Source of the DNA: Silvibacterium sp.
GTDB lineage: Bacteria > Acidobacteriota > Terriglobia > Terriglobales > Acidobacteriaceae
DNA: 64,000 nt
Assembly (NCBI GenBank): GCA_036273415.1
Contig: DASUHR010000001.1
Coordinates: forward strand, 167,496 to 231,495
Reading direction: 5' to 3'
A program made the position numbers and the translations under genes. Shown piece after piece: positions 1,930 through 64,000 of the stretch. Under the pieces are notes generated by a model. The model was not told the DNA's origin, made no database searches, and saw only the letters and a program-made list of their open reading frames with translations. Numbering within the stretch: position 1 is the stretch's first letter; each line of letters begins with the position of its first letter.

Positions 1930-1952
1930 AGAGTAACTTATCGGAGATACAC

Positions 1953-18003: not shown

Positions 18004-18026
18004 ATCTATTTAGATGCTGGCTCGAT

Positions 18027-18167: not shown

Positions 18168-18192
18168 GACAAGCTATCCCTAGACAAACTAT
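18168..18192 (+). promoter_or_regulatory. Direct repeat of the GACAANCTAT half-site next to the PadR start (candidate operator)
   Basis: GACAAGCTAT (18168-18177) and GACAAACTAT (18183-18192). The same half-site forms the inverted repeat at the second PadR gene (59456-59488). The first copy overlaps a TTGACA -35-like hexamer. Confidence 0.4.
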
Positions 18193-18202
18193 GGTAAGCA
18201 GC

Positions 18203-18532: not shown

Positions 18533-18556
18533 AAACTACGCAGGAGTAGGGGATCC

Positions 18557-24456: not shown

Positions 24457-24472
24457 TGGCACCCCGGCTGCA
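24457..24472 (+). promoter_or_regulatory. Sigma54 (-24/-12) promoter
   Basis: TGGCAC-cccgg-CTGCA has one mismatch to TGGCAC-N5-TTGCA. It is intergenic, oriented toward the kinase/activator operon, and 66-84 nt upstream of the candidate starts. Confidence 0.55.
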
Positions 24473-24537
24473 CTTAGAAGTGGCAAGGAAGCTGGCCTGG
24501 CGATCAATCGAGGGTCGCACCCGGCTTCCGAGTTCCG

Positions 24538-34636: not shown

Positions 34637-34819
34637 TCACCTGCCATTTTCATTTGATTCTTCAGAACCCTGCGCGTCCGCCCGCCAGGGACAATTCCGG
34701 CACCCCGACTGGCAGCAATACCCGCGCTTCAGATGGTAAGCCGCGGTAAATACCATGAACGGCCCCTCCATCACGTAATCCTCGCCCTCAATGAGCGGCG
34801 GCGGATCAGGCAAGCGCAC
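34637..34819 (-). CDS. Small Cys-rich protein, DUF5522-like (60 aa)
   Basis: EGEDYVMEGPFMVFTAAYHLKRGYCCQSGCRNCPW. The family name is from memory and needs confirmation. Its start overlaps the lhr stop by 14 nt. Confidence 0.5.
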   Translation of the reverse strand: MRLPDPPPLIEGEDYVMEGPFMVFTAAYHLKRGYCCQSGCRNCPWRADAQGSEESNENGR

Positions 34820-37800
34820 CGCCCTCGATCGCCGCAGAAAACGGCAGCGCTCCCGGCGATGGGATCGCAGGTTCGGCTTCTGTTTGCACAGACATATTCA
34901 TAATTGGATAAGTGACAAGTCGTCCAGGAATCGCAGCCTCGCGCTCGCCCGGTATCACAATGCCAACCAGATTCATCGGATCAGCCGCCGAATACGTAAT
35001 CGCAGCAGATACGTTCTCGCGCTTACGCAACATCCTCAACGACTCCAAAGCCTCCGGCAACGCAAACTGCTCACCCCCAAATCCGGAAACAAAACGTCCG
35101 CCGCGCACCGTCCCACGTGCCTCCATCCGCCGAAATATTCCCAGCAGCTCTCGCCACCGCGGCATCGCCGTCTCCCGCTCCATCAAATCGCGGAACACCA
35201 CGCCGTACCGTCGCAGCAGCACGCCGCACGCCGACTCCACCGCCGCCTCACGCCACGCCGCGCTCTGCTCCGCAGCATCCGGTCCGCGCATCATGCACCA
35301 TCGTCCCGCCGAAGGCCGCGCCGGTCTCTTGATCCCCGCGGGCGTTGCAAACATCTGTTTCCGGCGTGGATCAACCAGCGCCCGCAAGCTGTCGAATCCG
35401 TCCGCAGTCACCAGCCCCGCGGCCACCAGCTCCCATAACGCGCGACTCACATCTTCTGCCGAGGCCCCGAGCGCACGCGCCAGATCCCCCGGAAACATCG
35501 CGCCCCGCTCGCCCAGATAACTCCGCGCGCGGTTCGCCAAGTCGCTCAGCGTCGACGACAAATTCATCTCCGGGATCTCCCGCTGCGCCAGGCAAAGGTC
35601 CATCCAGAGCGCCTCTTCGCGCACGAAAAACGTAATCGGAGCCATTCCCGTCGGCACAATTCGCTTCGGCCCGCCGCTCTCGATCGCTGCAAACGCCGGA
35701 TGCGGCGAAATCCTTCCCCACCCCACAATGCCCGTCAACGTCAGCGCATCCAGCCAGCGCGGATCGTAATTCGCCACGCGCTGCGGCAACAGCGACCGCT
35801 CCCACTCGACCGCCGGAGCCTCAAATCCCTCAAGCCCGCGCAACGCTTCGAGCAATCCCTGCTCGCCGGTAAGCTGCCGTTGCGCTCCCAGGTGCTGCCA
35901 CTCTAGAGCAAACCGCATATGGATCGCCGGAGTTACCGGTTCCACCTGCTTCCGCAATGAATGCAGCGTCAGTTTATGGATACGCTGCAACAACCGCCTC
36001 TCGCACCATTCCACATCTCCATCCGCAAGTGCCGCCGCACTCGGCGCAATCTCAAAGGCGCCGCGCAAAATCGTTCCCGCCATCTCCAGCCGCAGCATCT
36101 GCTTCCATACATCGCCCGCGCTGACGCCCAACTGCTCCGCGAGTCCGCGCGATGTCACCGGTCCCAGCACTGCCATCCAGCCCTGCACCGCCTTCCGCAA
36201 AACATCTTCGGCGGAGGTAAAACCTGCCGGAACCCGCACCACCTCCGACGCAAACACAACCTCAGGCCTCAGCAGCCGGACGTCCTCCGCGCGCTCCGCC
36301 GCCACCCAGTAATTCCGTCCGCCGATCGAAGCCACCACCGCCCGACCGCGCAGGGCCAGCAACTCAAACCACGCCGCCCACTGCGCCTCCGCCGGAGCCA
36401 GCACCAGCGAGCACAGCAGATCATGCAGCTCGTGCTCGTCGCGCACATCGGGCCACACTTGCGTGCGCACCTCGGCAATTGCCTCCGGAGAGAGTCGCCC
36501 CGCTTCGCCCAGCGACGCCTCCGGCAACCTTCCCCGCATTGCCACCGCGCGCGCTCGTCGCTCCTCCAGCGGCGCGTCATCGAGAAACGCGTACGGATTG
36601 GCGTTTAGAATCTCGTGGGCAAACACTGAGGGCGTCGTCGTATCCACCGCAACGCAGCAAATGCGCCCGTCATCCATCCCCGCCAGCACATCCTTCAAGC
36701 CCGGAAGGTCCATCGCTTCCGTCAGAACGTCCTTCATCACCTCGCGAATCAGCGGATGATCCGGAATCTCAATATCGCCCTCAACATTTTCCTGGCAGGC
36801 CGCCACCTGCGGAAAAACGCTCGCCAGCAGATCGTCCGACCGCGTGCGCTGAATCTGCGGCGCAACCTTCTTGCCCTTCTGGAAGCGCAGCAATTGCAGC
36901 GCGCGCCCCGCGTCCCAACGCCAGCGCGCCTTAAAAATCGGAGAAGCCAGGGACGCCTGCTCCAGCAGCTCCGTCACCGTCTGCGTGGTCAAAAACTGAA
37001 ACACGTCACTCAACGGAAAGCTATGCTGCTCCGCCAGCGAAATGTTCAACCCGTTGTCTGTAGCCGCCGCCTGCAATTCAAAATTGAATCCGCGGCAAAA
37101 ACGTTTCCGCAACGCCAGCCCCCAGGCCTTGTTCACGCGCCCGCCGAACGGTGCATGCAGGATCAACTGCATCCCTCCGCCTTCATCGAAAAACCGCTCG
37201 GCCACAATTGTTGAAACGGACGGAACCGTTCCCAGCACCGCGCGCCCGGCGACTACATATGCAATCATCTGCTCCGCGCCCGCGTCGTTCACCGCGCACT
37301 CGTGCTTCAGCCAAGCCACCGTCTCCGCAACCGACGCGTTAGTCTGGCTCACAAACCCCGGGGCAACCTCGCGTGTCCGCGCGTCAATTTCCAATCTCAA
37401 ATCCGACACAAACTCCGACAGCTCCCGCGTCCGCTGCGGAGCCTCGCCCGTCCAGAACGGCAGAGTTGGGGGCTGCCCCTGCGCATCTTCCACCAGCACC
37501 CGCCCGGACGGTTCGATCTTCTGGATGCGCCAACTCGTGTTTCCCAGCAGAATCACATCGCCCGGCGACGAATCCACCGCGAAGTGTTCATCGAGCGTCG
37601 CAATCTGCACCCCGTCCGGCTGCATGATCACCGGAAAAAGGGGAGTATCCGGAATGGTCCCCCCGTTCGTCACCGCCGTGATTCGTGCGCCGCGCCGTCC
37701 CTGGATGCGCCCATGCACACGGTCCCGCAGCAGGTACGCGCCGAATCGCCCGCGGCTCGATTCAATTCCGTCCGCCAGCAGGCACAGCGCCTCCTCGAAT

Positions 37801-39212
37801 TCCGCCCACGTGAGCTCGCAATATGGTTGCGCTCGCCGCAGCACTTCGAACAGTTGCCGCTCTTCCCACGGTTCTGCTGCGCACGCCGCCACAATCTGTT
37901 GCATCAGCACATCAATCGGCTTCGCGGGAATCTCCAGCTTGTCCAGCACTCCGCTCCGCATCGCGCGCAACGCTGCAGCATTCTCAATCAGGTCATCGCG
38001 GGTCGTTACAAAAAACCTGCCCCTTGGAATAGCCCCTCGCCAATGCCCCGCCCGGCCCACACGCTGCATCGCAACGGCGATTGCGCGCGGCGAATTCACC
38101 TGGCAAACCAGATCGATAAACCCAATGTCGATTCCCAGTTCCAGCGAAGCCGTCGCTACCAGCATCCGAATCTCGCCGTCCTTCAGCCGCCGCTCCGCCT
38201 CCAGCCGCAGCTTCCGCGAGAGTGATCCGTGATGCGCCGCTACATGCTCTGCGCCCAGCCGCTCCCCCAGCGCAAATGCCAGCCGCTCCGCCATACGCCG
38301 CGTGTTCACAAACACCAATGTCGAACGATGCTCCATCGCGAGCTCTGCCAGCCGCGCATACACGCTCTCCCACACGGCGAACGTGGCCACGCCGCCTAGT
38401 TCATCGTTCGGCACCTCAATCGCTAGGTCCAGATCGCGCCGCTGCCCCGCCTGCACAATTTGCACCTCCGGCGCTCGTTCGCCGCCCAGGAATTCCGCAA
38501 CCAGCTCAATCGGATTTTGCGTCGCCGACAACCCAATCCGCTGCGGAGCCGCATGCCCCATAATCAAATCTGCCGCGTTCATCCGGTTTTCGCCGCGCAC
38601 CAGCGCGTCCAGCCGCTCCAGAGTCAATGCCAGATGCGACCCGCGCTTGTCGTCCGCGATTGCGTGAATCTCATCCACGATGACCGTCCTCACCCGCCGC
38701 AGATTCTGCCTGCTCTTTTCTGAAGTCAGCAGAATGTACAACGACTCCGGGGTCGTTACCAGAATGTGGGGCGGATGCTTGAGCATTGCAGCCCGTTCGC
38801 GCGGTAACGTGTCCCCAGTCCGCACTGCCGCTCGAATCTGCGGACATAAATAGCCCCGCTCCAGCGCCAGCCCCTGAATCTCACGCAGCGGCGTCTCTAA
38901 ATTCTTCTGGATATCGTTCGAGAGCGCCTTCAGTGGCGAAACATAAACCACCTCAGTCGCGCATTCCAACCGGCCCTCAATCGCCTGACGCAGCAGCGCA
39001 TCAATCGCAATCAAGAAAGCCGCCAACGTCTTGCCCGAGCCCGTGGGCGCCGAGATCAGCGCCGGCCGCCCCGCCAGAATATGCGGCCAGCCCAGCTCCT
39101 GCGGCTCGGTAGGCGTGACAAACCGCCGCACAAACCACTCCTGCACCACCGGATGCGCCCAGCGCAAACTCTCTGGAACAACCTCGGCAACAGGAATCAC
39201 AGGAGACAGCAT
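34806..39212 (-). CDS. lhr: ATP-dependent helicase Lhr (large helicase-related, long form)
   Basis: 1468 aa, with Walker A APTGSGKTLAAF, DEIH, SATQ and HHGSLS motifs and a long C-terminal extension. Confidence 0.9.
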   Translation of the reverse strand: MLSPVIPVAEVVPESLRWAHPVVQEWFVRRFVTPTEPQELGWPHILAGRPALISAPTGSGKTLAAFLIAIDALLRQAIEGRLECATEVVYVSPLKALSNDIQKNLETPLREIQGLALERGYLCPQIRAAVRTGDTLPRERAAMLKHPPHILVTTPESLYILLTSEKSRQNLRRVRTVIVDEIHAIADDKRGSHLALTLERLDALVRGENRMNAADLIMGHAAPQRIGLSATQNPIELVAEFLGGERAPEVQIVQAGQRRDLDLAIEVPNDELGGVATFAVWESVYARLAELAMEHRSTLVFVNTRRMAERLAFALGERLGAEHVAAHHGSLSRKLRLEAERRLKDGEIRMLVATASLELGIDIGFIDLVCQVNSPRAIAVAMQRVGRAGHWRGAIPRGRFFVTTRDDLIENAAALRAMRSGVLDKLEIPAKPIDVLMQQIVAACAAEPWEERQLFEVLRRAQPYCELTWAEFEEALCLLADGIESSRGRFGAYLLRDRVHGRIQGRRGARITAVTNGGTIPDTPLFPVIMQPDGVQIATLDEHFAVDSSPGDVILLGNTSWRIQKIEPSGRVLVEDAQGQPPTLPFWTGEAPQRTRELSEFVSDLRLEIDARTREVAPGFVSQTNASVAETVAWLKHECAVNDAGAEQMIAYVVAGRAVLGTVPSVSTIVAERFFDEGGGMQLILHAPFGGRVNKAWGLALRKRFCRGFNFELQAAATDNGLNISLAEQHSFPLSDVFQFLTTQTVTELLEQASLASPIFKARWRWDAGRALQLLRFQKGKKVAPQIQRTRSDDLLASVFPQVAACQENVEGDIEIPDHPLIREVMKDVLTEAMDLPGLKDVLAGMDDGRICCVAVDTTTPSVFAHEILNANPYAFLDDAPLEERRARAVAMRGRLPEASLGEAGRLSPEAIAEVRTQVWPDVRDEHELHDLLCSLVLAPAEAQWAAWFELLALRGRAVVASIGGRNYWVAAERAEDVRLLRPEVVFASEVVRVPAGFTSAEDVLRKAVQGWMAVLGPVTSRGLAEQLGVSAGDVWKQMLRLEMAGTILRGAFEIAPSAAALADGDVEWCERRLLQRIHKLTLHSLRKQVEPVTPAIHMRFALEWQHLGAQRQLTGEQGLLEALRGLEGFEAPAVEWERSLLPQRVANYDPRWLDALTLTGIVGWGRISPHPAFAAIESGGPKRIVPTGMAPITFFVREEALWMDLCLAQREIPEMNLSSTLSDLANRARSYLGERGAMFPGDLARALGASAEDVSRALWELVAAGLVTADGFDSLRALVDPRRKQMFATPAGIKRPARPSAGRWCMMRGPDAAEQSAAWREAAVESACGVLLRRYGVVFRDLMERETAMPRWRELLGIFRRMEARGTVRGGRFVSGFGGEQFALPEALESLRMLRKRENVSAAITYSAADPMNLVGIVIPGEREAAIPGRLVTYPIMNMSVQTEAEPAIPSPGALPFSAAIEGGALA

Positions 39213-44168: not shown

Positions 44169-46928
44169 ATGCTCTCGAACTTCGTTCTCACGCTGCGCTT
44201 CGCTCTCGTTTGCACATTATCGCTGGTCGCCACCGCGACCTTGGCGCAGACAACGATCCACGTTGGCCCCGGCCAGACCTACACTACCATCCAGTCCGGC
44301 ATCGACGCGGCCAATAATGGCGACACGGTTCTCGTCGCCCCCGGCACTTACAACGAAAACGTCAACTTCAATGGCAAAGCTATCACGGTCACCAGTTCCG
44401 GTGGCGCTGCCAGCACCATTATCGACGGAGGCAACAAGGCTGGAGTAGCCACAGTTGTCTTCGCCACCGGGGAAACGAGGACCAGCATTATTTCAGGGTT
44501 TACGATCCGAGGCGGCGGCGACACTATCTTCTCCGGGACGAGCGACGGTGGTATCTATGTCGGCGGCGCATCGCCAACCATCCAGGGCAATATTGTCACC
44601 GACAACTATTGCCATAACATCGACGTGGAATTTGGAGACGCAACGATCCTGAATAACGAAGTCTCGGGAGTCCTGCAAAGTAGCGGACAATTCGGCCCCG
44701 ATGAGAGCTATTGCACCTTTGGAAGTGGAATCCACCTGCAAGGCACGGATTATTTATTAAATAACCTGGGCTCTACCATTATTAGCAACACCATTGAGAA
44801 CAACCTGACGGGATCGGGGATCAACATATGGGCGGCGCAAAATGTGCTCATCATGAACAACACCATTCGAAACAATAACTCTCCTGACCCCGGGAGCGCC
44901 TTCACCTCCGCGAACAGTGAAGGCACCGTTATCGTCCAGAACCTGATCTACGACAATACCTCTACCTGCGGTGGCGCACTCGGATTTGAAGATGCAGGTT
45001 TGGCGGGGGGCACTCCGCTCGTCCTCATCGGCAACAACACGATTGTCGATAACGTGACGCCAAAGGCCTCTGGCGGTTCAGAGTGCACCGCGATCGCGCA
45101 GATATATCCTGGGCCTTATTCCTATGGATCGAGTGGTCCCGGCGTCCTCATTCTCAACAACGTTGTCAGTGGCTCGACCTCCTATCCGGCTGTCAATTGC
45201 TCCTGGTACGACCCGCCCAGCGAGACGGATCAGCCTACATTTCAGAACAACATCCTCTACAACGCCGGAGGCCCGTTCTTTGGATCCTACTGTGTGGATG
45301 TTTCGGGCAAATACAACAACATCGCCGCCGATCCACAGTTTGTCAGTTCCTCGACGCATGCCTACCGCCTGAAAGAAACATCGCCAGCAATCGATAGCGG
45401 TCAAAACAACATCCAGCAAATCTTCAAGACTATGACCGGGCTGGATTTTACGCAGGACTTTGATGGCAACCCCCGCGTGCAGGATGCCACCGGCGCCGGT
45501 TGCATCATCGACATGGGAGCCTACGAATACCCTGGCGCAGCCAGCAATTGCGGAACCTCAGAGACGCTGACCAGTTCCCTCAACCCTTCCGCGGTTGGAC
45601 AGAGTGTCACCTTTACAGCCCAACTAACTACAAATTCAGGCATACCGACAGGCAGCATTCAGTTTCTGGATGGGACCACTCCTCTCTCGACCCAGACGGT
45701 TTCGAGTACTGGATCGTCCAGCTTCAGCACAAGTTCGCTTGCGATCGGCAGTCACAACATCAGTGCGAACTATGAACCTACAGGAAGCTTTAGCGCGGGC
45801 ACGGCTTCGCTGACTCAGGTGGTCAATGGGTACGCGACCACCACCACCCTTTCATGTCTGCCGACCCCGATCGACGTATACAAAACCAGCGTGTTTACCG
45901 CCACCGTTACGTCTGCCAACGGCACGCCCACGGGTGCCATCACGTTTACCGACAACGGAGCCGCACTTGCAACAGAAGTTCTTCTCAACGGCGCAACCGG
46001 ATTCAACTACACCGGCTCGGTCGCCGGGACACATACCGTTATAGCGACCTACACGCCGACCGGACCCTTTGCCGCGAGCTCGGCAACCTGCTCCGAAGTT
46101 GTCAACCCCCTTCCGACAACCTCTGTCCTGACCGTCACTCCGGCAGTTTCTACCTACGGTTCCCCGGTCGCGCTCTCTGCAACCGTCTCCCCCGCCACGC
46201 TGCCCGGTCCCAGCACTCCCACTGGCGTTGTCACTTTCTACAACGGCGCTTCTGCCGTCGGCACCGCCACACTCGTAAACGGAATTGCAAGCCTGACTCC
46301 AGCCTCCCTTCCCGACGGAAGCTATAACCTCACCTGCATATATAGTGGAAGCTCCATCTACTCTGTAAGCAATTGCAATCTGGTTCCGGTCGTCATCCAG
46401 GCTCCTCCAGTCACGGGGGATTTTACGATTAACGTGAAGCCGGGATCGGTTTCTGTCTATCCCGGAGATAAAGCTAAGACGAAAGTGAATGTGGCTAGCT
46501 CGGGGGGCTTCAGTGAACAGCTTGCACTGAGCTGTACGGGACTTCCTGCGGAGACATCTTGCCAGTTCAGTCCAGATTCCATGACGAACGGGCAGGGAGA
46601 GTCCGCGCTTGTGATTCAGACGACGCCTCCACATAGGCTTCCGGCCAGCGCAGCGGCTGGGATCGCACGGATACCTGGAGTGCTGGCATTTGTCATCATG
46701 CTCGGTTGGCGTCGGCGGCGGGGCTTGCTGGCGAAGATGCTAATTGTATTTCTGGCTGCCAACGTCTTGTTTGCGGCCGCTGGAATGCTAGCCGGATGCG
46801 GATCCCCACCCGGAGCCACTGGCGGTACCCCAACCGGCGTGTATCAGGTTTTAGTGACGGCGACGACAGGAAGTGGCACGGCTCTTACGCACTCAGCTCC
46901 CGTTACCCTAACCGTGAAGTCATATTGA
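44169..46928 (+). CDS. Secreted right-handed beta-helix (NosD/pectate-lyase-like) protein with Ig-like repeats and C-terminal hydrophobic segments
   Basis: A signal peptide is followed by TIHVGPGQTYTTIQSGIDAANNGDTVLVAPGTYNENV and repeated ...N.I.NN... beta-helix rungs. Four Ig-like modules follow (LTSSLNPSAVGQSVTFTA and similar). Near the C-terminus there are two hydrophobic helices. Confidence 0.8.
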   Translation: MLSNFVLTLRFALVCTLSLVATATLAQTTIHVGPGQTYTTIQSGIDAANNGDTVLVAPGTYNENVNFNGKAITVTSSGGAASTIIDGGNKAGVATVVFATGETRTSIISGFTIRGGGDTIFSGTSDGGIYVGGASPTIQGNIVTDNYCHNIDVEFGDATILNNEVSGVLQSSGQFGPDESYCTFGSGIHLQGTDYLLNNLGSTIISNTIENNLTGSGINIWAAQNVLIMNNTIRNNNSPDPGSAFTSANSEGTVIVQNLIYDNTSTCGGALGFEDAGLAGGTPLVLIGNNTIVDNVTPKASGGSECTAIAQIYPGPYSYGSSGPGVLILNNVVSGSTSYPAVNCSWYDPPSETDQPTFQNNILYNAGGPFFGSYCVDVSGKYNNIAADPQFVSSSTHAYRLKETSPAIDSGQNNIQQIFKTMTGLDFTQDFDGNPRVQDATGAGCIIDMGAYEYPGAASNCGTSETLTSSLNPSAVGQSVTFTAQLTTNSGIPTGSIQFLDGTTPLSTQTVSSTGSSSFSTSSLAIGSHNISANYEPTGSFSAGTASLTQVVNGYATTTTLSCLPTPIDVYKTSVFTATVTSANGTPTGAITFTDNGAALATEVLLNGATGFNYTGSVAGTHTVIATYTPTGPFAASSATCSEVVNPLPTTSVLTVTPAVSTYGSPVALSATVSPATLPGPSTPTGVVTFYNGASAVGTATLVNGIASLTPASLPDGSYNLTCIYSGSSIYSVSNCNLVPVVIQAPPVTGDFTINVKPGSVSVYPGDKAKTKVNVASSGGFSEQLALSCTGLPAETSCQFSPDSMTNGQGESALVIQTTPPHRLPASAAAGIARIPGVLAFVIMLGWRRRRGLLAKMLIVFLAANVLFAAAGMLAGCGSPPGATGGTPTGVYQVLVTATTGSGTALTHSAPVTLTVKSY

Positions 46929-56380: not shown

Positions 56381-59074
56381 CTATTCAGCGCGGAGGGCCT
56401 CGACCGGGTTGACTTGCGCTGCGCGGCGGGCGGGCAGGTATGCCGCGACGGCCCCGCTTGCCAGCAGCACAAGAGCCACAGCGGCGAGCGTCCATGCATC
56501 GTGGGCGGAGACGCCGTAAAGATAGCTGCGGATGAAGCGAGTAGAGACGAAGGCGAGCACCAGTCCAAGAGCGACTCCAGTGATCACAAGCGTCCCGGCG
56601 TGGCGCAGGATCAGCCAGATGACGTCTTCACGCTGCGCCCCCAGCGCGAAGCGAACGCCCATTTCGCGGGTGCGCTGGCTCACAACATAAGCGAGCAGGC
56701 CATAAAGTCCGGCAACGCATAGCAGCAGAGCACATCCGGCAAAGATCTCCAGCAGCCTCGCGGCCAGCATCTGGCTGCCGTAAGAGTCCTCGACGATCTG
56801 GTCCATGGTGGTCATGTTTGAGTTCGCCAGCTCTGGGCTCGCTTGGCGAAGCGCGGCGCGGATCTCGGGAATCGCCACGCTGAGCGGCCGCTGCGTGCGC
56901 ACCGCCAGGTCCATGGCGATCCCTTCGAGCACGGTGTAAAAGCCGCTGGTTGGGGTGATTTGAGGCAGGTTCACTTCGATCTCAGGCGTAGCGGCCTGAC
57001 TGACGGAGGCCTGACGGAAATCATCGAGAATTCCGATGATGGTTCCGGATTTACTTTCCTTGCCCTTACCCAATTTTATGAGTTGCATACCGAGAACTTT
57101 GCTGAGGTTCTGCTGGTCGGGCGCATAGGCCCGTGCGAAAGCCTGATTGACAACGACAACAGGATCACTGGAGGCTGTGTCCTGCGCGTTGAAGTATCGC
57201 CCGGCTAGCATGTGAAAACCAAAAACGGATTGGAGATTGGGACTGACCGCTTTGAAGTTGGACTGGACGGTGGAATGGCCCGACTTGGCATCGCCATAAA
57301 GGGAGAGCGTCATTCTGAACGTATGGCCAAGTGGAACCTCCGTCATGAGGCCAGCGCCGTCGATTCCGGGCATGTGCTGAATGCGCTCAAGCAAGGGTTC
57401 GTAAAGGTCGGAGTCCGCATTGATACGGGTGAAGCGGTAGGTCGGAATTTGGAGATTGGCGACGATGATGTGATCGGTGCGGAACCCGAGCGGGACATGG
57501 CGGAGCGCATAAATGGTGCGCAGAAGGAGCCCGCAGGCGGCAAGCAGCGTCAGGGACATTGCAATTTCAGCGATCACAAGACCGCCGCGCAGGCGGTGAT
57601 GCGCGCGTGACGTTCCACTCTGCTGGCCGCCTTGGCGAAGTCCAGGTTCGATGGGAGCGTGTGACGCGATCCATGCCGGCCATGCCGCTGCAAGTACTGC
57701 CGAGACGAGCGTAAGAACAATGAGACCGGCGAGCACGGGAAGATTAAGTAAGACCGGAACGTCAAAGGGCAGATGGCTTTTAAGCGCATGATGAAAGAGC
57801 AAAATCAGCGCCGACCCCATCCCCGCTCCTATAAGTGCGGCGGTGCCGCTCAATAGGAAGCCTTCCACGATAAGCTGCTGTGTGACGCGCCAGCGGCTGG
57901 CGCCCAGGGCGCTGCGCATCGCCGTTTCGCGCTGGCGGGCCATGGCCCGGGCGAGCAGCAGGTTTGTGGCATTCACACATGCAATCAGCCAGAGTAGGAG
58001 GGCCGCGGAGAGCAGAGCGTAAAGCGCGCGTGCGGTAGATTGTTCCACGAGACCTGCGGAATAGGGTGCCATCTGCACGTGGCTGGCGAAGGAACGCGCA
58101 TCGGGGTCGGTGTAGTTTTGCACGATGCGCTTTTGCAAAATGTTGAGTTCGGCCAGCGCGCTCGCCAGCTTTACACCGGGCCGAAGACGTGCGATTACGC
58201 TATACATGGATGAGTCACTCTTGCGGACCTGATCTTTTTGGCTGAGCAGGAGTGGCGACCACGCCTCGGGTGCATGTGAGTCGTAAGGGAAGTTGAAACC
58301 CCGCGGCATAACTCCGGCGACGGTATAGGGCTGGTCGTTGACCTCGACGGACTTCCCAACGATGTTGCGATCGGCGGCGAAAATCGTACGCCATGCAGTG
58401 TCACTGAGAACAATGGTGTTGGCGGCTGCAGATTTCGCAAAGCTTTCCGGCGCCCGGGGAAGTCCCGGGCCGAGTTGCGGTCCGACTGCGAGCGCCTGAA
58501 AAAAGTTTGAACTCACGTGGACAAAGGAGATTTCCGTAGATGCGGTGGTGCCTCCGAGGAAGCTGCGGCCAGTGCTAAATGTGTAGTAGGCGATCTGGGC
58601 GAAACTTTTCGATTGACTTCGCCATGCGGCCAGATCGAGATAGGGAACGCCGTACCAGAATGCATTGCCGCCTGGTTCGCCTTCACTTACATCTACAAGC
58701 TGCGACGGATGTGGGTAGGGCAATGGCCGCAGCAGCACGCGATCAACCACAGTAAACATCGCCGTAGCCGCGCCAATCCCCAGAGCCAGAGTCCCAACCA
58801 CGGCGGCAGCGAACCCGGGTGATCTGCGCATCTGGCGCGCCGCATAGCGCAGATCCTGCAGGAGCCGCTCCAGCCACAGCCATCCCCAGCTCTCGCGGGT
58901 CACGTCTTTCACGAGCGCCGCATTTCCGAATTCGCGCCGGGCTTCCTGCTCGGCCGTCTCCGCATCGGCTCCTCGGTCGCGCTTTTCGGCGGCGGCCATC
59001 GCAAGATGTGCTGTGATCTCTTCGTCTAGCTCGGATTTCTTATCATCTGCGCGAAATAGCTTCGAGAAACGCAT
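56381..59074 (-). CDS. ADOP-type duplicated MacB-like permease 3
   Basis: LQDLRYAARQMRRSPGFAAAVVGTLALGIGAATAMF, with two FtsX signatures (RETAMRSALGA and REMGVRFALGA). ATG 59074 was chosen; the upstream part of the 1026-aa ORF is an out-of-frame shadow of PadR. Confidence 0.9.
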   Translation of the reverse strand: MRFSKLFRADDKKSELDEEITAHLAMAAAEKRDRGADAETAEQEARREFGNAALVKDVTRESWGWLWLERLLQDLRYAARQMRRSPGFAAAVVGTLALGIGAATAMFTVVDRVLLRPLPYPHPSQLVDVSEGEPGGNAFWYGVPYLDLAAWRSQSKSFAQIAYYTFSTGRSFLGGTTASTEISFVHVSSNFFQALAVGPQLGPGLPRAPESFAKSAAANTIVLSDTAWRTIFAADRNIVGKSVEVNDQPYTVAGVMPRGFNFPYDSHAPEAWSPLLLSQKDQVRKSDSSMYSVIARLRPGVKLASALAELNILQKRIVQNYTDPDARSFASHVQMAPYSAGLVEQSTARALYALLSAALLLWLIACVNATNLLLARAMARQRETAMRSALGASRWRVTQQLIVEGFLLSGTAALIGAGMGSALILLFHHALKSHLPFDVPVLLNLPVLAGLIVLTLVSAVLAAAWPAWIASHAPIEPGLRQGGQQSGTSRAHHRLRGGLVIAEIAMSLTLLAACGLLLRTIYALRHVPLGFRTDHIIVANLQIPTYRFTRINADSDLYEPLLERIQHMPGIDGAGLMTEVPLGHTFRMTLSLYGDAKSGHSTVQSNFKAVSPNLQSVFGFHMLAGRYFNAQDTASSDPVVVVNQAFARAYAPDQQNLSKVLGMQLIKLGKGKESKSGTIIGILDDFRQASVSQAATPEIEVNLPQITPTSGFYTVLEGIAMDLAVRTQRPLSVAIPEIRAALRQASPELANSNMTTMDQIVEDSYGSQMLAARLLEIFAGCALLLCVAGLYGLLAYVVSQRTREMGVRFALGAQREDVIWLILRHAGTLVITGVALGLVLAFVSTRFIRSYLYGVSAHDAWTLAAVALVLLASGAVAAYLPARRAAQVNPVEALRAE

Positions 59075-59093
59075 GGCGGTGCTCCTTCGCCTT

Positions 59094-59450
59094 TCAGTTT
59101 TCCATCTGCGGATTGAGGACTCCGCCAATAGCGCCCACCATCGCTTCCCACTTGGTGCGCCCAAGCGCGAGCTGCTTTCGGCCCTCTTTGGTGAGCTTGT
59201 AGAATTTGGCGCGCTGGTTCTGGTCGGTGGTTCGCCATTCGCTGGCAATCCACTTCTGGCGCTCCATGCGGTGCAGCGCGGGATAAAGCGATCCAGTTTC
59301 GACTTGGAGAATTTCTCCCGAGCGGGCGCGGATGGCCTGACTAATTGCATAACCATGCTGCGCCCCCCAACGGAGAGTTTCGAGAATAAGCAGATCGAGC
59401 GTGCCTTGCAGCAGCTCAATTTTGTTGCGATAGTCTTCGCGCTGAGCCAT
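59094..59450 (-). CDS. PadR family transcriptional regulator
   Basis: GTLDLLILETLRWGAQHGYAI...TGSLYPALHRMERQKWI...KFYKLTKEGRKQL. It lies 19 nt upstream of ADOP 3. Confidence 0.9.
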   Translation of the reverse strand: MAQREDYRNKIELLQGTLDLLILETLRWGAQHGYAISQAIRARSGEILQVETGSLYPALHRMERQKWIASEWRTTDQNQRAKFYKLTKEGRKQLALGRTKWEAMVGAIGGVLNPQMEN

Positions 59451-60479: not shown

Positions 60480-60712
60480 ATATATAGATCCTCGTTTCGT
60501 CGGCTATAAAGATGCGGAATTACTTGAAAAGATTCGGCCGCGCTGCCCCCGAACCCTTCGCAGAAACCACCGCAAAGCGCATATCGCCGCCTGCCCTGCC
60601 GTTGTCCATTTCCGGACACCAAATTCCAAAAACGGTCACTTCCAGCCCCGCCCGTGCCCGCCTTCCTGCGTTCAACCATCATTTTTACATATACTTAACG
60701 CACGAACCCGCT

Positions 60713-60728
60713 TGGCAGAGCACTTGCA
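60713..60728 (+). promoter_or_regulatory. Sigma54 (-24/-12) type promoter motif upstream of the adaptor/ATPase/TolC operon
   Basis: TGGCAG-agcac-TTGCA has one mismatch to the consensus. It ends 14 nt before ATG 60743, which has no Shine-Dalgarno motif. Confidence 0.4.
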
Positions 60729-60742
60729 ACAATAGAACCGTA

Positions 60743-62008
60743 ATGGACATAACCCGGCCCGACATTAAGAAGAAGAAACTTCGCCGCAACATAATATGGG
60801 GAGCCGTCGCGGTCGTTGTCCTGGCCGGCGCCGCCGTCGGCGTCTACCGCCTCAAGCCTGCCATTCCCACGGTCGACGCAAGCACCGTCTGGCCTGATAC
60901 CGTTAAGCGCGGCAACATGGTCCGTCAGGTCCGCGGCCTCGGCACCCTGGTTCCCCGCGAAGATTCCATCGAGCTCATCCCCGCGCAGACTGACGCCACC
61001 ATCGTCCGCATTCGCGTTCTCCCCGGCTCAAAGGTCACGCCCGATACCGTCCTCATGGACCTCGCCGACCCACAACTCCAACAGGAGTTGCTCACCGCGC
61101 AGTTGCAGCTCAAGCAGGCCGAGGCCGACTACAAGAGCCAGCAGGCCACCCTGCAAAGCACGCTGATGGACAAAAAGACCGCTGCCGCCGAAGTCAACGC
61201 CAACTACGCCCAGGACCAGCTTCAGGCCCAAACCGACAAGCAGCTCTACGACCTCGGCGTCATGTCCGGCATCGCTTACGCCAAATCCAAGGGCACCGCC
61301 GACCAGCTCACTACGCAGCACCAGCTCAGCCAGCAGCAGCTTGACGTCAACCAGCAGGCCATCGAGGTGCAGTTAGCCTCTTCGCAGACCAAAATCGATC
61401 AGGCCAAGGCCCTCCTCGACCTCTATCAAAAGCAGAAGGACGCCCTTCAGGTCCGGGCCGGCATCTCTGGCGTTCTTAACCCGCTCGCCACTCCGCTCCA
61501 GGTCGGCCAGCATGTCACCGCCGGCACATCTCTGGCCGAAGTCGTCGAGCCGGACAAGCTCAAGGCTGCCCTGCAGATCGCCGAAACCCAGGCGCACGAC
61601 ATCGAGCTCGGCCAGCCCGCCGAAGTTGACACCCACAACGGCATCGTTCCCGGCCACGTCACCAGAATTGATCCTGCGGTAGTGAACGGAACCCGCACCG
61701 TTGACGTAACACTCGATGGAGCCCTGCCCTCGGGCGCGGTTCCGCAGTTGAGCGTAGACGGCACCATCGACCTCCAGCGCCTGCAAGATGTGCTGTACGT
61801 CGGCCGTCCCGCCTTCGGCAATGAAAATTCGACCATCAGCCTGTTCCGCTACGACCCCGACGGCAAAACCGCCACCAGGGTCCAGGTTCAGGTGGGCAGA
61901 GCATCGGTTACGCAGATTCAAATCCTCGGCGGACTGAAAGAAGGCGACCGCGTCATTCTTTCCGACATGTCGAGATATGACAACACGGACAAAGTCCGTC
62001 TCGAATAA
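60743..62008 (+). CDS. Periplasmic adaptor (HlyD/MacA-type membrane fusion protein)
   Basis: An N-terminal TM anchor is followed by a long coiled-coil region (LTAQLQLKQAEADYKSQQATLQS...) and a beta-barrel/MP domain. ATG 60743 was chosen. Confidence 0.85.
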   Translation: MDITRPDIKKKKLRRNIIWGAVAVVVLAGAAVGVYRLKPAIPTVDASTVWPDTVKRGNMVRQVRGLGTLVPREDSIELIPAQTDATIVRIRVLPGSKVTPDTVLMDLADPQLQQELLTAQLQLKQAEADYKSQQATLQSTLMDKKTAAAEVNANYAQDQLQAQTDKQLYDLGVMSGIAYAKSKGTADQLTTQHQLSQQQLDVNQQAIEVQLASSQTKIDQAKALLDLYQKQKDALQVRAGISGVLNPLATPLQVGQHVTAGTSLAEVVEPDKLKAALQIAETQAHDIELGQPAEVDTHNGIVPGHVTRIDPAVVNGTRTVDVTLDGALPSGAVPQLSVDGTIDLQRLQDVLYVGRPAFGNENSTISLFRYDPDGKTATRVQVQVGRASVTQIQILGGLKEGDRVILSDMSRYDNTDKVRLE

Positions 62009-62031
62009 CGCAGCACCAGGAGGGCATGTAT

Positions 62032-62751
62032 ATGGAAACAAGACAATCGCTGATTGAGATTGAGGGCCTCACCAAGGTCTTCTACACCGACGAGATCGAG
62101 ACCCACGCGCTCTCCGGCATCCATCTCACCATCTCTAAAGGTGAGTACGTCGCTATGTCCGGCCCTTCAGGCTGCGGCAAGTCGACGCTGCTCTCCATCG
62201 TCGGCCTGCTCGACACGCCCACCTCAGGCAAGTACCTGCTCAACGGCCACGCCGTCGAAAACCTGAACTTCGCCCAGCGCTCGCGCATCCGCAATCAGGA
62301 AATTGGATTCATCTTCCAGAGCTTCAACCTCATCGGCGACCTCACCGTCTACGAGAACGTCGAGCTGCCGCTCACGTATCGCACCGGCATGTCGTCGGTC
62401 GAGCGCAAGCGCCGGGTTCAGGAATCGCTCGAGCGCGTCAGCATGGCGCACCGTATGAAGCACTACCCCTCGCAGCTCTCAGGCGGTCAGCAGCAGCGCG
62501 TCGCCGTGGCCCGCGCCCTCGCCGGCTCGCCCTCCATTCTGCTCGCCGACGAGCCTACCGGAAACCTCGACTCACGCAACGGCGAAGCCGTGATGGAGCT
62601 GCTCCAGAACCTGCACCGTGAAGGCGCAACCATCTGCATGGTGACGCACGACCCCCGCTTCGCCCGCCACGCCGAGCGCCAGGTCCACCTCTTCGACGGC
62701 AAAGTTGTCGCCGAAGGAGACGCCCTCGAACAGGTGCTCGAGTCGAGATAA
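62032..62751 (+). CDS. ABC transporter ATP-binding protein (MacB/LolD-type NBD), copy 1
   Basis: Walker A GPSGCGKST, signature LSGGQQQRV, Walker B ILLADEPTGNLD, H-loop VTHD. AGGAGG lies 8 nt before ATG 62032; the ORF-track start is 62026. Confidence 0.9.
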   Translation: METRQSLIEIEGLTKVFYTDEIETHALSGIHLTISKGEYVAMSGPSGCGKSTLLSIVGLLDTPTSGKYLLNGHAVENLNFAQRSRIRNQEIGFIFQSFNLIGDLTVYENVELPLTYRTGMSSVERKRRVQESLERVSMAHRMKHYPSQLSGGQQQRVAVARALAGSPSILLADEPTGNLDSRNGEAVMELLQNLHREGATICMVTHDPRFARHAERQVHLFDGKVVAEGDALEQVLESR

Positions 62752-62826
62752 AAGAGCCGTTGCCGTTGCCGGTCCCCAGTCGTTGGTCAACTCTTGGTTG
62801 GCTGAACGAACTCCTCTGCCCGAATA

Positions 62827-62854
62827 TGGCAACTGAGAACTGGCAACTGAAAAC
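62827..62854. repeat. 2 x 14-bp tandem repeat between the two ATPase genes
   Basis: tggcaactgagaac / tggcaactgaaaac, with a related gcgaactgtgaactga at 62869-62884. Confidence 0.7.
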
Positions 62855-62885
62855 CGGGGATTCCCAATGCGAACTGTGAACTGAC

Positions 62886-63593
62886 ATGATTCAGCTAAAA
62901 AATATCGAGCGAAGCTACAAGACCGGCCCCACCCAGACCTGGGTCCTCCGCCGCATCAATCTTGACATCCGCGAGGGCGAGTTCGTCACCATCATGGGCC
63001 CTTCCGGAGCCGGAAAATCCTCGCTCCTCAACATTCTCGCCCTGCTCGACGACCAGTGGATCGGCGAATACTGGTTCAATGACGAGCCCATCCACAAAAT
63101 GAACCGCAAGCAACGCGCCGATCTCGCCCGCCGCAACATCGGCATGGTCTTCCAGAGCTATCACCTTCTTGACGACCTCACCGTAGCAGAAAACATTGAC
63201 CTGCCGCTCTCCTACAAAAACATGCCCCGTGCCGAGCGCCAGGGACTCGTCGCCGACACCCTCGACCGATTCAATATTGTCGGCAAGAAAGACCTGTACC
63301 CATCGCAACTCTCCGGCGGACAACAGCAGCTCGTCGGTATCGCCCGCGCCGTCATTCACAAGCCTTCTCTGTTGCTCGCCGACGAGCCCACCGGAAACCT
63401 TCATTCCAGCCAGGCCAAAGAGATCATGGAGCTCTTCCGCGAGCTCAACAACGAGGGAACCACCATCGTCCAGGTCACGCACTCTGACGTGAACGCCGGC
63501 TACGGCACTCGCATTATTGAGGTCCGCGACGGCTGGATGACCCACGATTCCGCCCACCCCGAAATGGCGCAGGCCACGCCGGGGCTTATCTAG
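62886..63593 (+). CDS. ABC transporter ATP-binding protein (MacB/LolD-type NBD), copy 2
   Basis: Walker A GPSGAGKSS, signature LSGGQQQLV, Walker B LLLADEPTGNLH, H-loop VTHS. It is clearly diverged from copy 1. Confidence 0.9.
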   Translation: MIQLKNIERSYKTGPTQTWVLRRINLDIREGEFVTIMGPSGAGKSSLLNILALLDDQWIGEYWFNDEPIHKMNRKQRADLARRNIGMVFQSYHLLDDLTVAENIDLPLSYKNMPRAERQGLVADTLDRFNIVGKKDLYPSQLSGGQQQLVGIARAVIHKPSLLLADEPTGNLHSSQAKEIMELFRELNNEGTTIVQVTHSDVNAGYGTRIIEVRDGWMTHDSAHPEMAQATPGLI

Positions 63594-63601
63594 GAGCACG
63601 T

Positions 63602-64000
63602 ATGGATTTTCGCTGGTGTAAGAAGCTGAGCGCTGCCGCCCTCTCCGTTCTCATCGCCCCATGCGGCCTCGCGCAGCAGACGAATCAGCCTCCGAATGCT
63701 CCCACTCAACAATCCGCGCCGCCGCCGCAAACCCCCTCGCAAACCCCGACGCAAACGATAGCCCAGCAGGCCAACGCCGCTCAGCAGGTGCAGCCCGTCA
63801 CCGCCGGACCTCAGCAGCCATTTCACATCCGGCTGCCCCACTCTCGTAACCCGTTCGCCGCTTACCTGGCCAGCACCGTCCCGCCCGTCAATCTCACCAA
63901 TTCACCGCGCCTTCAGAACCTCGAGCGTGACGGCAAGCTCTACATCTCTCTTCAGGATGCCATCGCCCTCGCACTTGAAAACAATCTGGACATCGCTCGG
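63602..64000 (+). CDS. TolC-family outer membrane efflux protein (3' end lies outside the window)
   Basis: My own translation from ATG 63602, with AGGAG 5 nt upstream: a signal peptide, a Gln/Pro-rich linker, then LSLQDAIALALENNLDIAR, a typical OEP N-terminal motif. The frame stays open to the window end. Confidence 0.8.
   Translation, partial: MDFRWCKKLSAAALSVLIAPCGLAQQTNQPPNAPTQQSAPPPQTPSQTPTQTIAQQANAAQQVQPVTAGPQQPFHIRLPHSRNPFAAYLASTVPPVNLTNSPRLQNLERDGKLYISLQDAIALALENNLDIAR

Follow-up and report, generated by a model that had tools for sequence, protein, structure and literature searches.

Which inner-membrane permease works with an operon that encodes an adaptor, two ATPases and an outer-membrane channel? 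The question is raised by four co-oriented genes at positions 60743-64000 of a 64,000-nucleotide stretch of DNA from Silvibacterium sp. (the window), which encode a HlyD-type adaptor, two MacB/LolD-type ATPases and the 5' part of a TolC-like protein; no permease gene was found within these positions. The initial annotation proposed that the locus is a shared chassis for individually regulated permeases of the ADOP type encoded elsewhere in the window. The explanation that we favour, and consider probable, is that the locus belongs to a sigma54/two-component-controlled tripartite type VII (MacB-type) ABC pump, the permease gene of which moved off and stayed in the regulon. Gene content, synteny, orthology, purifying selection and motif conservation were observed directly.

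The chassis operon and its two ATPases

The adaptor (60743-62008, on the forward strand, as is the whole operon) is a periplasmic protein of the HlyD/MFP family with an N-terminal membrane anchor; it matches Pfam HlyD_D23 and HlyD_3, and scores 96.5 bits against TIGR01730 (cutoff 94.9). The locus had been taken to start at 60713, but translation does not begin there: a sigma54-type -24/-12 element opens at that base, and the adaptor ATG lies at 60743. There follow NBD1 (62026-62751), a stand-alone MacB/LolD-type ABC ATPase, and NBD2 (62886-63593), a second, different ABC ATPase, with ABC_tran matches at E-values of 1e-34 and 2e-32; the closest named models to both are DarD, the MacB NBD, LolD and FtsE. 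A tblastn search of the 64 kb found no further NBD1/NBD2-like ATPase gene. The TolC-like gene (63602-64000), which is cut by the window end, encodes a signal peptide and a Q/P-rich N-terminal region; its 133 visible residues by themselves have no Pfam match, and they align at 74% identity with the N-terminus of a 662-residue ortholog (L013) that matches Pfam OEP. The intergenic gaps are 17, 134 and 8 nt, in order, and contain neither an ORF nor an ADOP remnant. The description of the locus as permease-less is correct in this respect.

The two ATPases had been described as diverged and intact, and this is borne out. They are 43% identical, and both retain Walker A, the Q-loop, LSGGQ, the Walker B D-E and the H-loop. 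NBD1 has the canonical D-loop GNLD and the signature LSGGQQQR, and its motifs are invariant among 76 orthologs. NBD2 has GNLH and LSGGQQQL; the D-loop His, kept in at least 90% of 56 orthologs, and the Leu that replaces Arg after the signature are conserved asymmetries. Both genes are retained at every locus showing the region, single-ADOP operons included, a pattern that fits one fused permease served by two unlike NBDs, and we infer an NBD1/NBD2 heterodimer. It is unlikely, in our judgement, that NBD1 and NBD2 instead form separate homodimers, serving different ADOPs or conditions. Each ATPase is catalytically complete, and the characterised fused type VII permeases do take an NBD homodimer, YbbAP having two YbbA per YbbP (PMC12646458); however, both genes are present even where there is one ADOP, they bracket the ADOP array in an order that does not vary, and each NBD has conserved deviations of its own, those of NBD2 being the His and Leu just described.

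Permease genes in orthologous operons

Orthologous loci were compared from 80 species, 74 of which are informative on what comes after NBD1. Since one locus was taken per genome, the loci compared are orthologs and not paralogous systems. NBD1 and NBD2 are adjacent, as in the window, in 46 of the 74 species, and are followed by TolC, a sigma54 response regulator and a histidine kinase. ADOP genes come after NBD1 in 27 of the 74 related species (soil acidobacteria, Acidobacteriaceae); ten have the order NBD1-ADOP(1-3)-NBD2-TolC, and 17 have NBD1 and then one to at least five ADOP genes up to the point where the locus ends. One species (L079) has just an ADOP fragment after NBD1, and L076, which is counted as adjacent, has a gap of about 665 nt between NBD1 and NBD2 with an ADOP remnant like that of L079; these N-terminal remnants mark deletion scars. 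All ten inserted operon genes tested against TIGR03434 pass the cutoff. Fifteen metagenome contigs reach from NBD1 through to NBD2, with two to five ADOPs inside; a contrary case is contig L134, with the odd gene order ADOPa-NBD2-ORF-NBD1-ADOP. Arrays of two to five ADOPs beside a single NBD pair imply, as far as gene arrangement can tell, that permeases share one chassis, a point on which the initial annotation finds support.

The response regulator and kinase were observed in the orthologous loci; the window ends inside the TolC-like gene, and the gene content 3' of TolC in the source genome is extrapolated from the 46 orthologous loci. The kinase beside the chassis in the orthologs has two TM helices with hardly any periplasmic loop between them. 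It had been suggested that FtsX permease genes immediately after TolC might account for the NBDs, and these are absent there in all 46 relatives with the same layout. A partner of another kind, a non-ADOP permease of FtsX/MacB type encoded outside the window, with the ADOP neighbourhood elsewhere incidental, seems to us very improbable. The gene survey of the source genome was confined to the 64-kb window, but ADOPs are the sole permease genes inside the operon in those related species that carry any, 47 metagenome contigs likewise have ADOPs as their sole in-operon permeases, and the activator site of the chassis is otherwise found only ahead of orthologs of ADOPa, the permease described below.

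Still less credible is the suggestion that the permease-less operon is a decaying, non-functional remnant. ADOP genes were indeed deleted from the operon, with the scars in L076 and L079; nevertheless, the ADOP-less layout is maintained in 46 species, the catalytic motifs are invariant, and the promoter and activator site are conserved. Against ADOP-less relatives, dN/dS is 0.07-0.13 for the adaptor, 0.03-0.09 for NBD1 and 0.04-0.10 for NBD2. Values of 0.03-0.13 for these genes among ADOP-less species mean that the chassis is in use.

The ADOP permeases and their regulatory signals

The three ADOP-type proteins lacking an NBD that had been noted in the window are confirmed by TIGR03434 (cutoff 622 bits): ADOPa (1953-4472, forward strand) scores 825 bits, ADOPb (18557-21199, forward) 868 and ADOPc (56381-59074, reverse) 764. 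Each contains MacB_PCD plus FtsX twice, and no NBD was found in any of the three; a G-x4-GKS string in ADOPb is a chance occurrence with no LSGG partner. ADOPa is a duplicated MacB-type permease without an N-terminal prefix domain, and is predicted to have eight TM helices and two periplasmic domains. Its AF2 model (pLDDT 75) consists of two four-helix MacB units, and a fold search of the PDB places YbbP and MacB on top, YbbP being best. The gene lies 57 kb from the chassis, as an insertion that separates a DUF503 gene from rbfA. ADOPa falls in the same 50%-identity cluster as the in-operon ADOPs of five of the orthologous loci (L028, L043, L055, L067 and L080), and 62 of 80 metagenomic orthologs (65-76% identity) lie in ADOP arrays or adjoin NBD1/NBD2, with an NBD in cis in 47.

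ADOPa also shares its upstream signals with the chassis. A putative upstream activator site, the palindrome TGTCCATTTCCGGACA (60603-60618), lies 110 nt 5' of the -24 element of the chassis, the sigma54-type -24/-12 sequence TGGCAGAGCACTTGCA (60713-60728, forward strand), itself 30 nt 5' of the adaptor ATG. A second exact copy, TGTCCAAATCCGGACA (1797-1812), lies 117 nt 5' of the -24 element of ADOPa, within TGGCACTTCTTGTGCA (1914-1929, forward strand), which is 39 nt 5' of the ADOPa ATG with a GGAG Shine-Dalgarno in between. The window has no exact TGTCC-N6-GGACA site besides these two, against an expectation of 0.03. In 86 of 89 orthologous chassis loci, the palindrome is found 140 or 116 nt ahead of the adaptor ATG (background 0.018 per 300 nt), and of the 79 exact copies in 2.36 Mb of loci, 68 precede adaptors and 11 precede solo ADOPa orthologs. 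Those 11 orthologs, on metagenome contigs, and the ortholog L161 (80%), whose genomic context is different, have the exact palindrome 86-120 nt before a GG-N10-GC element; the equivalent of the -24/-12 element is present in 12 of 13 solo ADOPa orthologs, and L161 too carries both palindrome and sigma54 element.

It should be noted that matches to the sigma54 consensus by itself are no more frequent in the window than expected (five against 5.7); the weight of the element comes from its position and cross-species conservation, not from window frequency. Of 79 orthologous loci, 64 carry TGGC-N8-[TC]GC[AT] about 30 nt (-28 to -32) before the adaptor ATG, within divergent flanks, and the remaining 15 have TGGT or TGGA variants at that position. 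A point against the reading is the unusually short leader, about 5 nt, that the predicted transcription start leaves ahead of the adaptor ATG. We propose, from position and conservation, that the palindrome may be bound by the NtrC-type response regulator whose gene follows TolC in orthologous operons.

Because the operons of relatives hold ADOP genes, and because ADOPa shares the regulatory signals, ADOPa is very likely the missing membrane part of the window chassis. The proposed partnership of chassis and ADOPs thus gains strong support for ADOPa, on the strength of the in-operon ADOPs, orthology and the common promoter and activator signals, whereas individual regulation does not: the best-linked ADOP has the same activator site and sigma54 promoter as the chassis.

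Whether this extends to every ADOP of the genome, with ADOPb and ADOPc also using the one NBD1/NBD2-adaptor-TolC module, is doubtful, although less so than the alternatives above. There are three ADOPs to one NBD pair in the 64 kb, sharing is seen in the arrays of two to five ADOPs per pair, and ADOPb and ADOPc retain the N-terminal helix, coupling-helix and C-tail motifs of the in-operon ADOPs. In 61 ADOP paralogs (about 30-35% identical to the window ADOPs), the best conserved parts are indeed four cytoplasmic elements, namely the N-terminal helix, two coupling helices and the C-tail. Such motifs are, however, largely common to the whole FtsX/MacB family and therefore do not discriminate for chassis use, and the NBD and ADOP counts cover the 64-kb window. 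Moreover, ADOPb, with an N-terminal 'permease prefix domain 1', lies behind a PadR gene (18191-18532; the pair spans 18191-21199), and ADOPc, also with a prefix domain, behind another (59094-59450; the pair, on the reverse strand, spans 56381-59450 and is separated from the chassis operon by a pirin gene). Neither has an activator palindrome nearby or a sigma54 element, which leaves their expression unlinked to that of the sigma54-controlled chassis. Neither groups with any in-operon ADOP at 50% identity or above, ADOPb being at most 36% identical to these. Generic conservation of cytoplasmic docking elements is the sole tie of ADOPb and ADOPc to the chassis.

A proposed pump and its relation to known systems

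Returning to ADOPa as the permease, for physical assembly, NBD pairing, regulator-site pairing and substrate we infer the following. The locus would contribute ATPases, adaptor and outer-membrane channel to a tripartite efflux machine whose inner-membrane permease is an ADOP, a single chain of two fused MacB-like halves. The ancestral operon may have been UAS - sigma54 promoter - adaptor - NBD1 - ADOP(n) - NBD2 - TolC-like - response regulator (NtrC-type) - histidine kinase. In the Silvibacterium-like lineage of the window, ADOP genes would have been lost from the NBD1-NBD2 interval, one of them being ADOPa, relocated 57 kb off and acting in trans; having kept the activator site and sigma54 promoter, it would be switched on with the chassis. 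A histidine kinase of the intramembrane-sensing type would phosphorylate the sigma54 activator, which would bind TGTCC-N6-GGACA about 110 bp 5' of both promoters. The NBD1/NBD2 heterodimer might then dock on ADOPa via the two coupling helices, N-terminal helix and C-terminal tail, and the adaptor and TolC-like channel would complete a MacAB-TolC-like pump, expelling a toxic periplasmic or membrane-borne compound by mechanotransmission.

MacAB-TolC of E. coli (PDB 5NIK) likewise has an HlyD-family adaptor, a TolC-type outer-membrane factor, a MacB-type NBD and a permease of 4-TM units in which a large periplasmic domain separates TM1 from TM2; the two pumps probably also share a mechanism, mechanotransmission with expulsion out of the periplasm. 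MacB is the best PDB sequence match for ADOPa and is among the top matches for the window NBDs. However, MacB forms a homodimer and carries the NBD as an N-terminal fusion, whereas in the window system the permease halves form one chain, the NBDs are two separate, unlike genes, the permease gene lies outside the operon, and control is by sigma54 and a two-component system. E. coli YbbAP-TesA, a type VII ABC system (PDB 9GE6-9GE8; PMC12646458), resembles the window system in its single pseudo-symmetric permease with two periplasmic domains and in its separate NBDs. Over its full length, the ADOPa model matches the fold of YbbP best (TM-score 0.52, E 5e-18), but YbbP has 10 TM helices, with two linker helices, against the eight predicted for ADOPa. 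YbbAP uses two copies of one NBD, its partner is the periplasmic hydrolase TesA instead of an adaptor and TolC, and NF041854 gives 22-24 bits against a cutoff of 999.

The darobactin exporter DarBCD (NCBIfam NF038007, NF038008, NF038010) comprises a double-FtsX permease, DarB (model length 777 positions), an adaptor, DarC, and a stand-alone NBD, DarD, which is the top-scoring named model for both window NBDs (246-250 bits); every score against the DarBCD models is far under the equivalog cutoffs (375, 700 and 450). The exporter has a single NBD gene, against two in the window system, and sits in a biosynthetic cluster, of which the window has none. The bacitracin-sensing BceAB-BceRS modules (PDB 7TCG, 8G4C) share genetic coupling to a two-component system, and their kinase, which has two TM helices and lacks a sensing loop, shows the topology of the chassis-linked ortholog kinase. 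BceB, on the other hand, combines 10 TM helices with a single extracellular domain, BceA forms a homodimer, the regulator BceR is of the OmpR type and not a sigma54 activator, and these Gram-positive modules lack adaptor and TolC.

Group II ECF transporters have an EcfA-EcfA'-EcfT module with two different NBDs and dispersed S components, and MsiK and MsmK are importer ATPases shared among transporters. In both, an energising module at one locus serves membrane specificity modules encoded, and sometimes regulated, elsewhere. The folds are unrelated, and these are importers without adaptor or outer-membrane channel; the likeness is an analogy of logic and not homology. The working principle nevertheless matches that of the window system, and ECF transporters and MsiK-type importers are established examples of dispersed membrane modules that share one ATPase module.

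The chassis operon and the three permeases

The window has a G+C content of ~60%, and its proteins are 80-100% identical to Silvibacterium and other Acidobacteriaceae MAG proteins. At its 3' end lies the permease-less operon referred to here as the chassis, all four genes of which are on the + strand: an HlyD/MFP adaptor (ATG at 60743, ending at 62008), the MacB/LolD/FtsE-type ATPases NBD1 (62026-62751) and NBD2 (62886-63593), and the first 133 codons of a TolC-like gene (63602-64000), which runs off the window end. The adaptor matches the Pfam families HlyD_D23 and HlyD_3 and lies barely over the cutoff of TIGR01730. The 133-residue TolC-like fragment alone gives no Pfam match; its orthologs, 662-665 aa long and with an N-terminus to which it is 74% identical, match the OEP (TolC) family, PF02321. 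With the outer membrane factor assigned from these full-length orthologs, an adaptor and a TolC-family protein are found within one operon, as expected for MacAB-TolC. The TolC-like protein (63602-64000; full length at L013 12877-14865) is unusually long, at 662-665 aa, and has a Q/P-rich low-complexity stretch behind the signal peptide as well as a Gly/Ser-rich insertion.

NBD1 and NBD2 are 43% identical to each other; NBD2 homologs occur under the species names Silvibacterium acidisoli and S. dinghuense. In both NBDs, Walker A, the Q-loop, LSGGQ, Walker B D-E and the H-loop are intact, and both are MacB/LolD/FtsE-type NBDs with the complete catalytic motifs of type VII ABC transporters; these motifs are invariant in 76 NBD1 and 56 NBD2 orthologs. 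NBD2 has conserved deviations of its own, namely a D-loop His (GNLH vs GNLD) and a Leu replacing the Arg behind the signature. The adaptor and the two NBD genes show dN/dS values of 0.03-0.13 among species whose operon lacks an ADOP (duplicated MacB-like permease) gene, which argues that the ADOP-less chassis is not decaying.

No permease remnant or ORF was found between the four chassis genes, and no further NBD1/NBD2-like ATPase gene was detected within the 64 kb. The initial annotation described an adaptor/NBD1/NBD2/TolC-like locus without a permease gene, beside three ADOPs that have no NBD, and the window indeed contains this arrangement. The 134-nt spacer between NBD1 and NBD2 was searched for an ADOP scar, with no tblastn match. 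Nor does it appear to hold a conserved element: the spacer is unalignable among close relatives, and a short direct repeat within it, CTGGCAACTGA(G/A)AA (two copies, 62826-62853), is not conserved and so is probably without function.

The three permeases are ADOPa (1953-4472), ADOPb (18557-21199) and ADOPc (56381-59074, minus strand). Their TIGR03434 scores are 825, 868 and 764 bits, respectively, against a curated whole-protein HMM cutoff of 622.3 bits. Each contains PF12704 (MacB_PCD) twice and PF02687 (FtsX) twice, and in none of them was a Walker A and signature pair found; all three thus show the internal duplication without an ATP-binding cassette that defines the family. ADOPs are described as 'orphan' since no ABC ATPase gene is fused or adjacent to them. 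No ATPase gene adjoins ADOPa, ADOPb or ADOPc; in related genomes, orthologs and paralogs sit between NBD1 and NBD2. Three large genes are also found in the window, coding for an 852-aa FG-GAP repeat protein (14777-17335), a 1468-aa ORF (34806-39212) and a 919-aa protein with three Big_3_5 Ig-like domains (44169-46928).

Hydropathy and an AlphaFold2 model of ADOPa (pLDDT 75, pTM 0.59) give eight transmembrane helices, arranged as two MacB-type four-helix units, both of which have a periplasmic domain as well as a short coupling helix (residues 336-344 and 744-752). The first unit comprises TM1 (19-47), TM2 (299-334), the coupling helix 336-344, TM3 (349-387) and TM4 (402-428), a layout repeated in the second; the other cytoplasmic elements are helices at the N-terminus (2-17) and the C-terminus (832-838). 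According to Pfam and this moderate-confidence model, ADOPa has the features of a type VII transporter, namely a four-TM unit in which a periplasmic Porter/Sabre domain separates TM1 from TM2 and a coupling helix connects TM2 to TM3. The best fold match in the PDB is YbbP (9GE6, 9GE7), followed by MacB, Spr0695, LolC/E and BceB. Among 61 ADOP paralogs, conservation is highest in four cytoplasmic elements, which are the N-terminal helix, the two coupling helices and the C-tail. The N-terminal helix and C-tail are conserved far more than the corresponding segments where the two halves join, and the cytoplasmic face is therefore asymmetric. These features fit the docking of NBDs and speak against ATPase-independent function of ADOPs. 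The motifs are, for the most part, common to the whole family, so that they cannot prove which NBD is used.

Operon layouts in related species

The chassis was surveyed in one genome per species, giving 80 orthologous loci, one per genome, with adaptors that are 67-88% identical; gene content beyond TolC is taken from these loci. In the 46 that have the window's layout, a response regulator (RR) gene and then a histidine kinase (HK) gene directly follow TolC. FtsX permease genes behind TolC that might account for the NBDs, the outcome that the initial annotation set against its own proposal, were looked for in the same 46 loci and occur in none. In the orthologous loci, the RR is of the NtrC type (REC, Sigma54_activat and HTH_8 domains). 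In the HK, only a few residues link the two TM helices, and these are followed by a HAMP-like linker (recognized by eye, with no Pfam match) and a weak PAS match, a predicted topology of the intramembrane-sensing type.

A permease is present within the operon of other species. The order NBD1-ADOP(1-3)-NBD2-TolC-RR-HK is found in 10 of the 74 loci that are informative beyond NBD1, including the operon of Tunturiibacter lichenicola MP8S11 (L078; complete chromosome, NZ_CP132944.1), which holds one ADOP. In 17 of the 74, NBD1 is followed by one to at least five ADOP genes up to the end of the locus DNA, as in Terracidiphilus gabretensis S55 (L046) and Acidicapsa dinghuensis (L037). All ten inserted genes tested score over the ADOP cutoff. 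Two Granulicella-type loci (L076 and L079) have an NBD1-NBD2 spacer of 586-665 nt that codes for ~45 residues of an ADOP N-terminus; these spacers, the only ones with such remnants, are scars left when a permease gene was deleted from the operon. Given the in-operon ADOPs elsewhere and these scars, the operon with a permease is probably the older state and the window's layout derived. One locus (L134 1734-9237) has an atypical order, with an ADOPa ortholog, NBD2, an unassigned 256-aa ORF, NBD1 and an ADOP, and no TolC behind NBD2.

Evidence as to which ADOP belongs to the chassis comes from clustering 61 full-length ADOPs at ≥50% identity. ADOPa clusters with in-operon ADOPs of five loci (L028, L043, L055, L067 and L080); ADOPb and ADOPc share no cluster with any in-operon ADOP in this set. 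A metagenome scan with ADOPa gave 80 orthologs (65-76% identity), of which 62 lie in ADOP arrays or adjoin NBD1/NBD2 and 47 have an NBD in cis; 13 are solo genes outside a chassis operon, as in the window. Fifteen metagenome contigs span NBD1 to NBD2 with two to five ADOPs inside. As such arrays hold a single NBD pair, one adaptor and one channel, they imply that alternative permeases use one chassis in common. The idea, put forward from the initial reading of the window, that the chassis is the partner of ADOPs is well supported for ADOPa and for permease sharing in general.

The operon layouts also bear on how the two ATPases might be paired. Both NBD genes are always retained, even with a single ADOP, their order around the ADOP array does not vary, and NBD1 and NBD2 differ in the conserved deviations that they carry; for these reasons an NBD1/NBD2 heterodimer is favoured. 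Alternatively, NBD1 and NBD2 might act as separate homodimers, for which there is a precedent in YbbAP, which works with two identical YbbA subunits (PMC12646458). We consider this less favoured than the heterodimer.

ADOPb and ADOPc differ from ADOPa in several respects. Each is preceded by a PadR gene (18191-18532 for ADOPb; 59094-59450, minus strand, for ADOPc), and each has an N-terminal cytoplasmic extension of ~60-70 residues, the 'permease prefix domain 1' (NCBIfam NF038403). The prefix domain is absent from ADOPa. Most in-operon ADOPs are too short at the N-terminus to hold it, according to a regex census that missed 90 sequences and is indicative only. Neither ADOPb nor ADOPc has the TGTCC-N6-GGACA palindrome described below. 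ADOPs that combine a prefix domain with a PadR gene seem to form a regulatory subclass of their own, and one possibility is that the prefix domain contacts PadR.

The sigma54-type promoter and putative activator site

A sigma54-type element, TGGC-N8-[TC]GC[AT], is found ~30 nt upstream of the adaptor ATG in 64 of 79 loci, with TGGT or TGGA variants in the other 15. That of the window's chassis is TGGCAGAGCACTTGCA (60713-60728). ADOPa has its own, TGGCACTTCTTGTGCA (1914-1929), followed by GGAG and the ATG at 1953, and an equivalent is present in 12 of 13 solo ADOPa orthologs. The sigma54 consensus is not above chance in its number of occurrences in the window, and its meaning comes from position and conservation alone. 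In nearly all species, the distance from the -24/-12 element to the adaptor ATG hardly departs from 30 nt (window 60713-60745; L001-L080), which leaves the predicted adaptor transcript a leader of only ~5 nt and no Shine-Dalgarno sequence; the leaders of solo ADOPa genes are longer and contain GGAG.

Approximately 110 nt upstream of the chassis and ADOPa promoters are TGTCC-N6-GGACA palindromes (60603-60618 and 1797-1812), the only exact copies in the 64 kb, where 0.03 would be expected. Of 89 chassis loci, 86 have the palindrome, at position -140 or -116 relative to the adaptor ATG, against a background of 0.018 per 300 nt. Of the 79 exact palindromes in 2.36 Mb of loci, 68 lie upstream of adaptors and the remaining 11 upstream of solo ADOPa orthologs; most of these 11 have a GG-N10-GC element 86-109 nt downstream of the palindrome. 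Some loci (L059 and L113) have two copies of the palindrome 21 bp apart, and paired sites of this kind are typical of bEBP binding. The features of a sigma54/NtrC-type two-component operon are thus present: a GG-N10-GC promoter, an activator site ~100 bp upstream and, as seen in the orthologs, an RR and an HK. The RR encoded behind TolC is the obvious candidate to bind the palindrome.

Because palindrome and promoter stand before chassis and solo ADOPa genes alike, ADOPa, on leaving the operon, keeps the operon's control region. An 80% ADOPa ortholog in another genomic context (L161) carries both, and the occurrence of solo orthologs in unrelated contexts such as this suggests that the ADOPa cassette has been relocated repeatedly. 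In the window, ADOPa is inserted together with its activator site and sigma54 promoter; a DUF503 (YlxP-like) gene (1489-1788) flanks this unit on one side and rbfA (about 4650-5030) on the other, the whole spanning 1489-5030 with the 3' end of infB (42-476) just upstream. The unit interrupts a normally compact housekeeping cluster.

Further candidate members of the regulon were considered. One-mismatch palindromes at 25133 and 52312 have neither an ADOP nor a chassis gene behind them, and such near-matches are about as frequent as chance would give. An ADOP gene behind the kinase in L001 was rejected, as a membrane-protein gene intervenes and there is no activator site. The equivalent kinase-following gene of L013, a genome with an ADOP-less operon, has a one-mismatch palindrome, TGTCCACTTTCGAACA, with a GG-N10-GC element ~99 nt downstream (17919-18057), and this ADOP, of a different group, may be a second relocated member of the regulon. 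The window also encodes a second sigma54-type activator (25554-27035), ~40% identical to the chassis-linked RR over 435 residues, and has a TGGCAC-N5-CTGC element (24457-24471) upstream of an ORF at 24538-25557; this sigma54 circuit (24457-27035) is probably unrelated to the chassis.

Proposed mechanism and relation to known transporters

Gene content, orthology, synteny, selection and motif conservation are observed; from them we infer the steps from kinase to pump. The loop-less kinase would activate the sigma54 RR, which would bind the palindrome and switch on both the chassis operon and ADOPa. ADOPa would then take one NBD1 and one NBD2, and the adaptor and TolC-like channel would complete a MacAB-TolC-like pump, through which a periplasmic or membrane-borne toxic compound might be expelled. 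The chassis and ADOP system is real and conserved, and it is probably functional.

In group II ECF transporters and MsiK-type importers, a common energising module serves dispersed membrane modules. A tentative and rather doubtful extension of our scheme is that one sigma54-run chassis energises a whole library of interchangeable ADOPs, including the scattered PadR-controlled 'orphans', with the HK sensing substrate load via the transporter. If true, this would be the exporter counterpart of group II ECF transporters, and the loop-less kinase would, like BceS, sense through the transporter at work.

In Acidobacteria, one of the dominant soil phyla, ADOP permeases occur as large families of paralogs, and they take their name from the lack of a partner ATPase. 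The family now gains a concrete partner in the chassis, with its two unlike NBDs, adaptor and TolC-like channel, and a regulator circuit in which a loop-less kinase and a sigma54 activator go with a defined DNA site. There is also a genomic rule, in that the palindrome plus the -24/-12 element finds the system's permeases even after relocation. The function of a large 'unknown' transporter family thereby becomes directly testable.

In the literature searched, only two papers use the ADOP family name and neither assigns a partner, and none is described there in work on ADOP, on Acidobacteria with MacB/FtsX or on YbbAP, save for a remark in a 2014 paper that a Psychroflexus ADOP cluster sits among transporter genes with ATP-binding regions (PMC3914696). 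A 2018 review of the MacB family describes fused permeases only with two linker helices, a separately encoded NBD and a homodimeric NBD arrangement (PMC5985334). The system does not fall within MacB in the strict sense, which has an N-terminally fused NBD and is a homodimer, as its NBDs are of two kinds and encoded by genes of their own; against the MacB equivalog model the score is 203-224 bits, for the NBD part only, against a cutoff of 966. The system is neither YbbAP nor DarBCD. The YbbAP model NF041854 scores 22-24 bits (cutoff 999), and there are two different NBD genes; YbbAP combines a 10-TM permease with a YbbA homodimer, whereas eight TM helices are predicted here. DarBCD equivalog scores also fall short (DarD 246-250 vs 375, DarB 24-58 vs 700, DarC 53 vs 450). 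The predicted way of working is the same as in MacAB-TolC, although here the NBDs are unfused and of two kinds and the permease halves are joined in one chain. Neither an 8-TM fused permease with two unlike NBDs nor several alternative permeases sharing one ATPase/adaptor/channel set, as the gene arrangement suggests, was found described for type VII ABC transporters. The chassis with ADOP is a variant of the type VII ABC tripartite pump, and ends the 'orphan' status of a large acidobacterial family.
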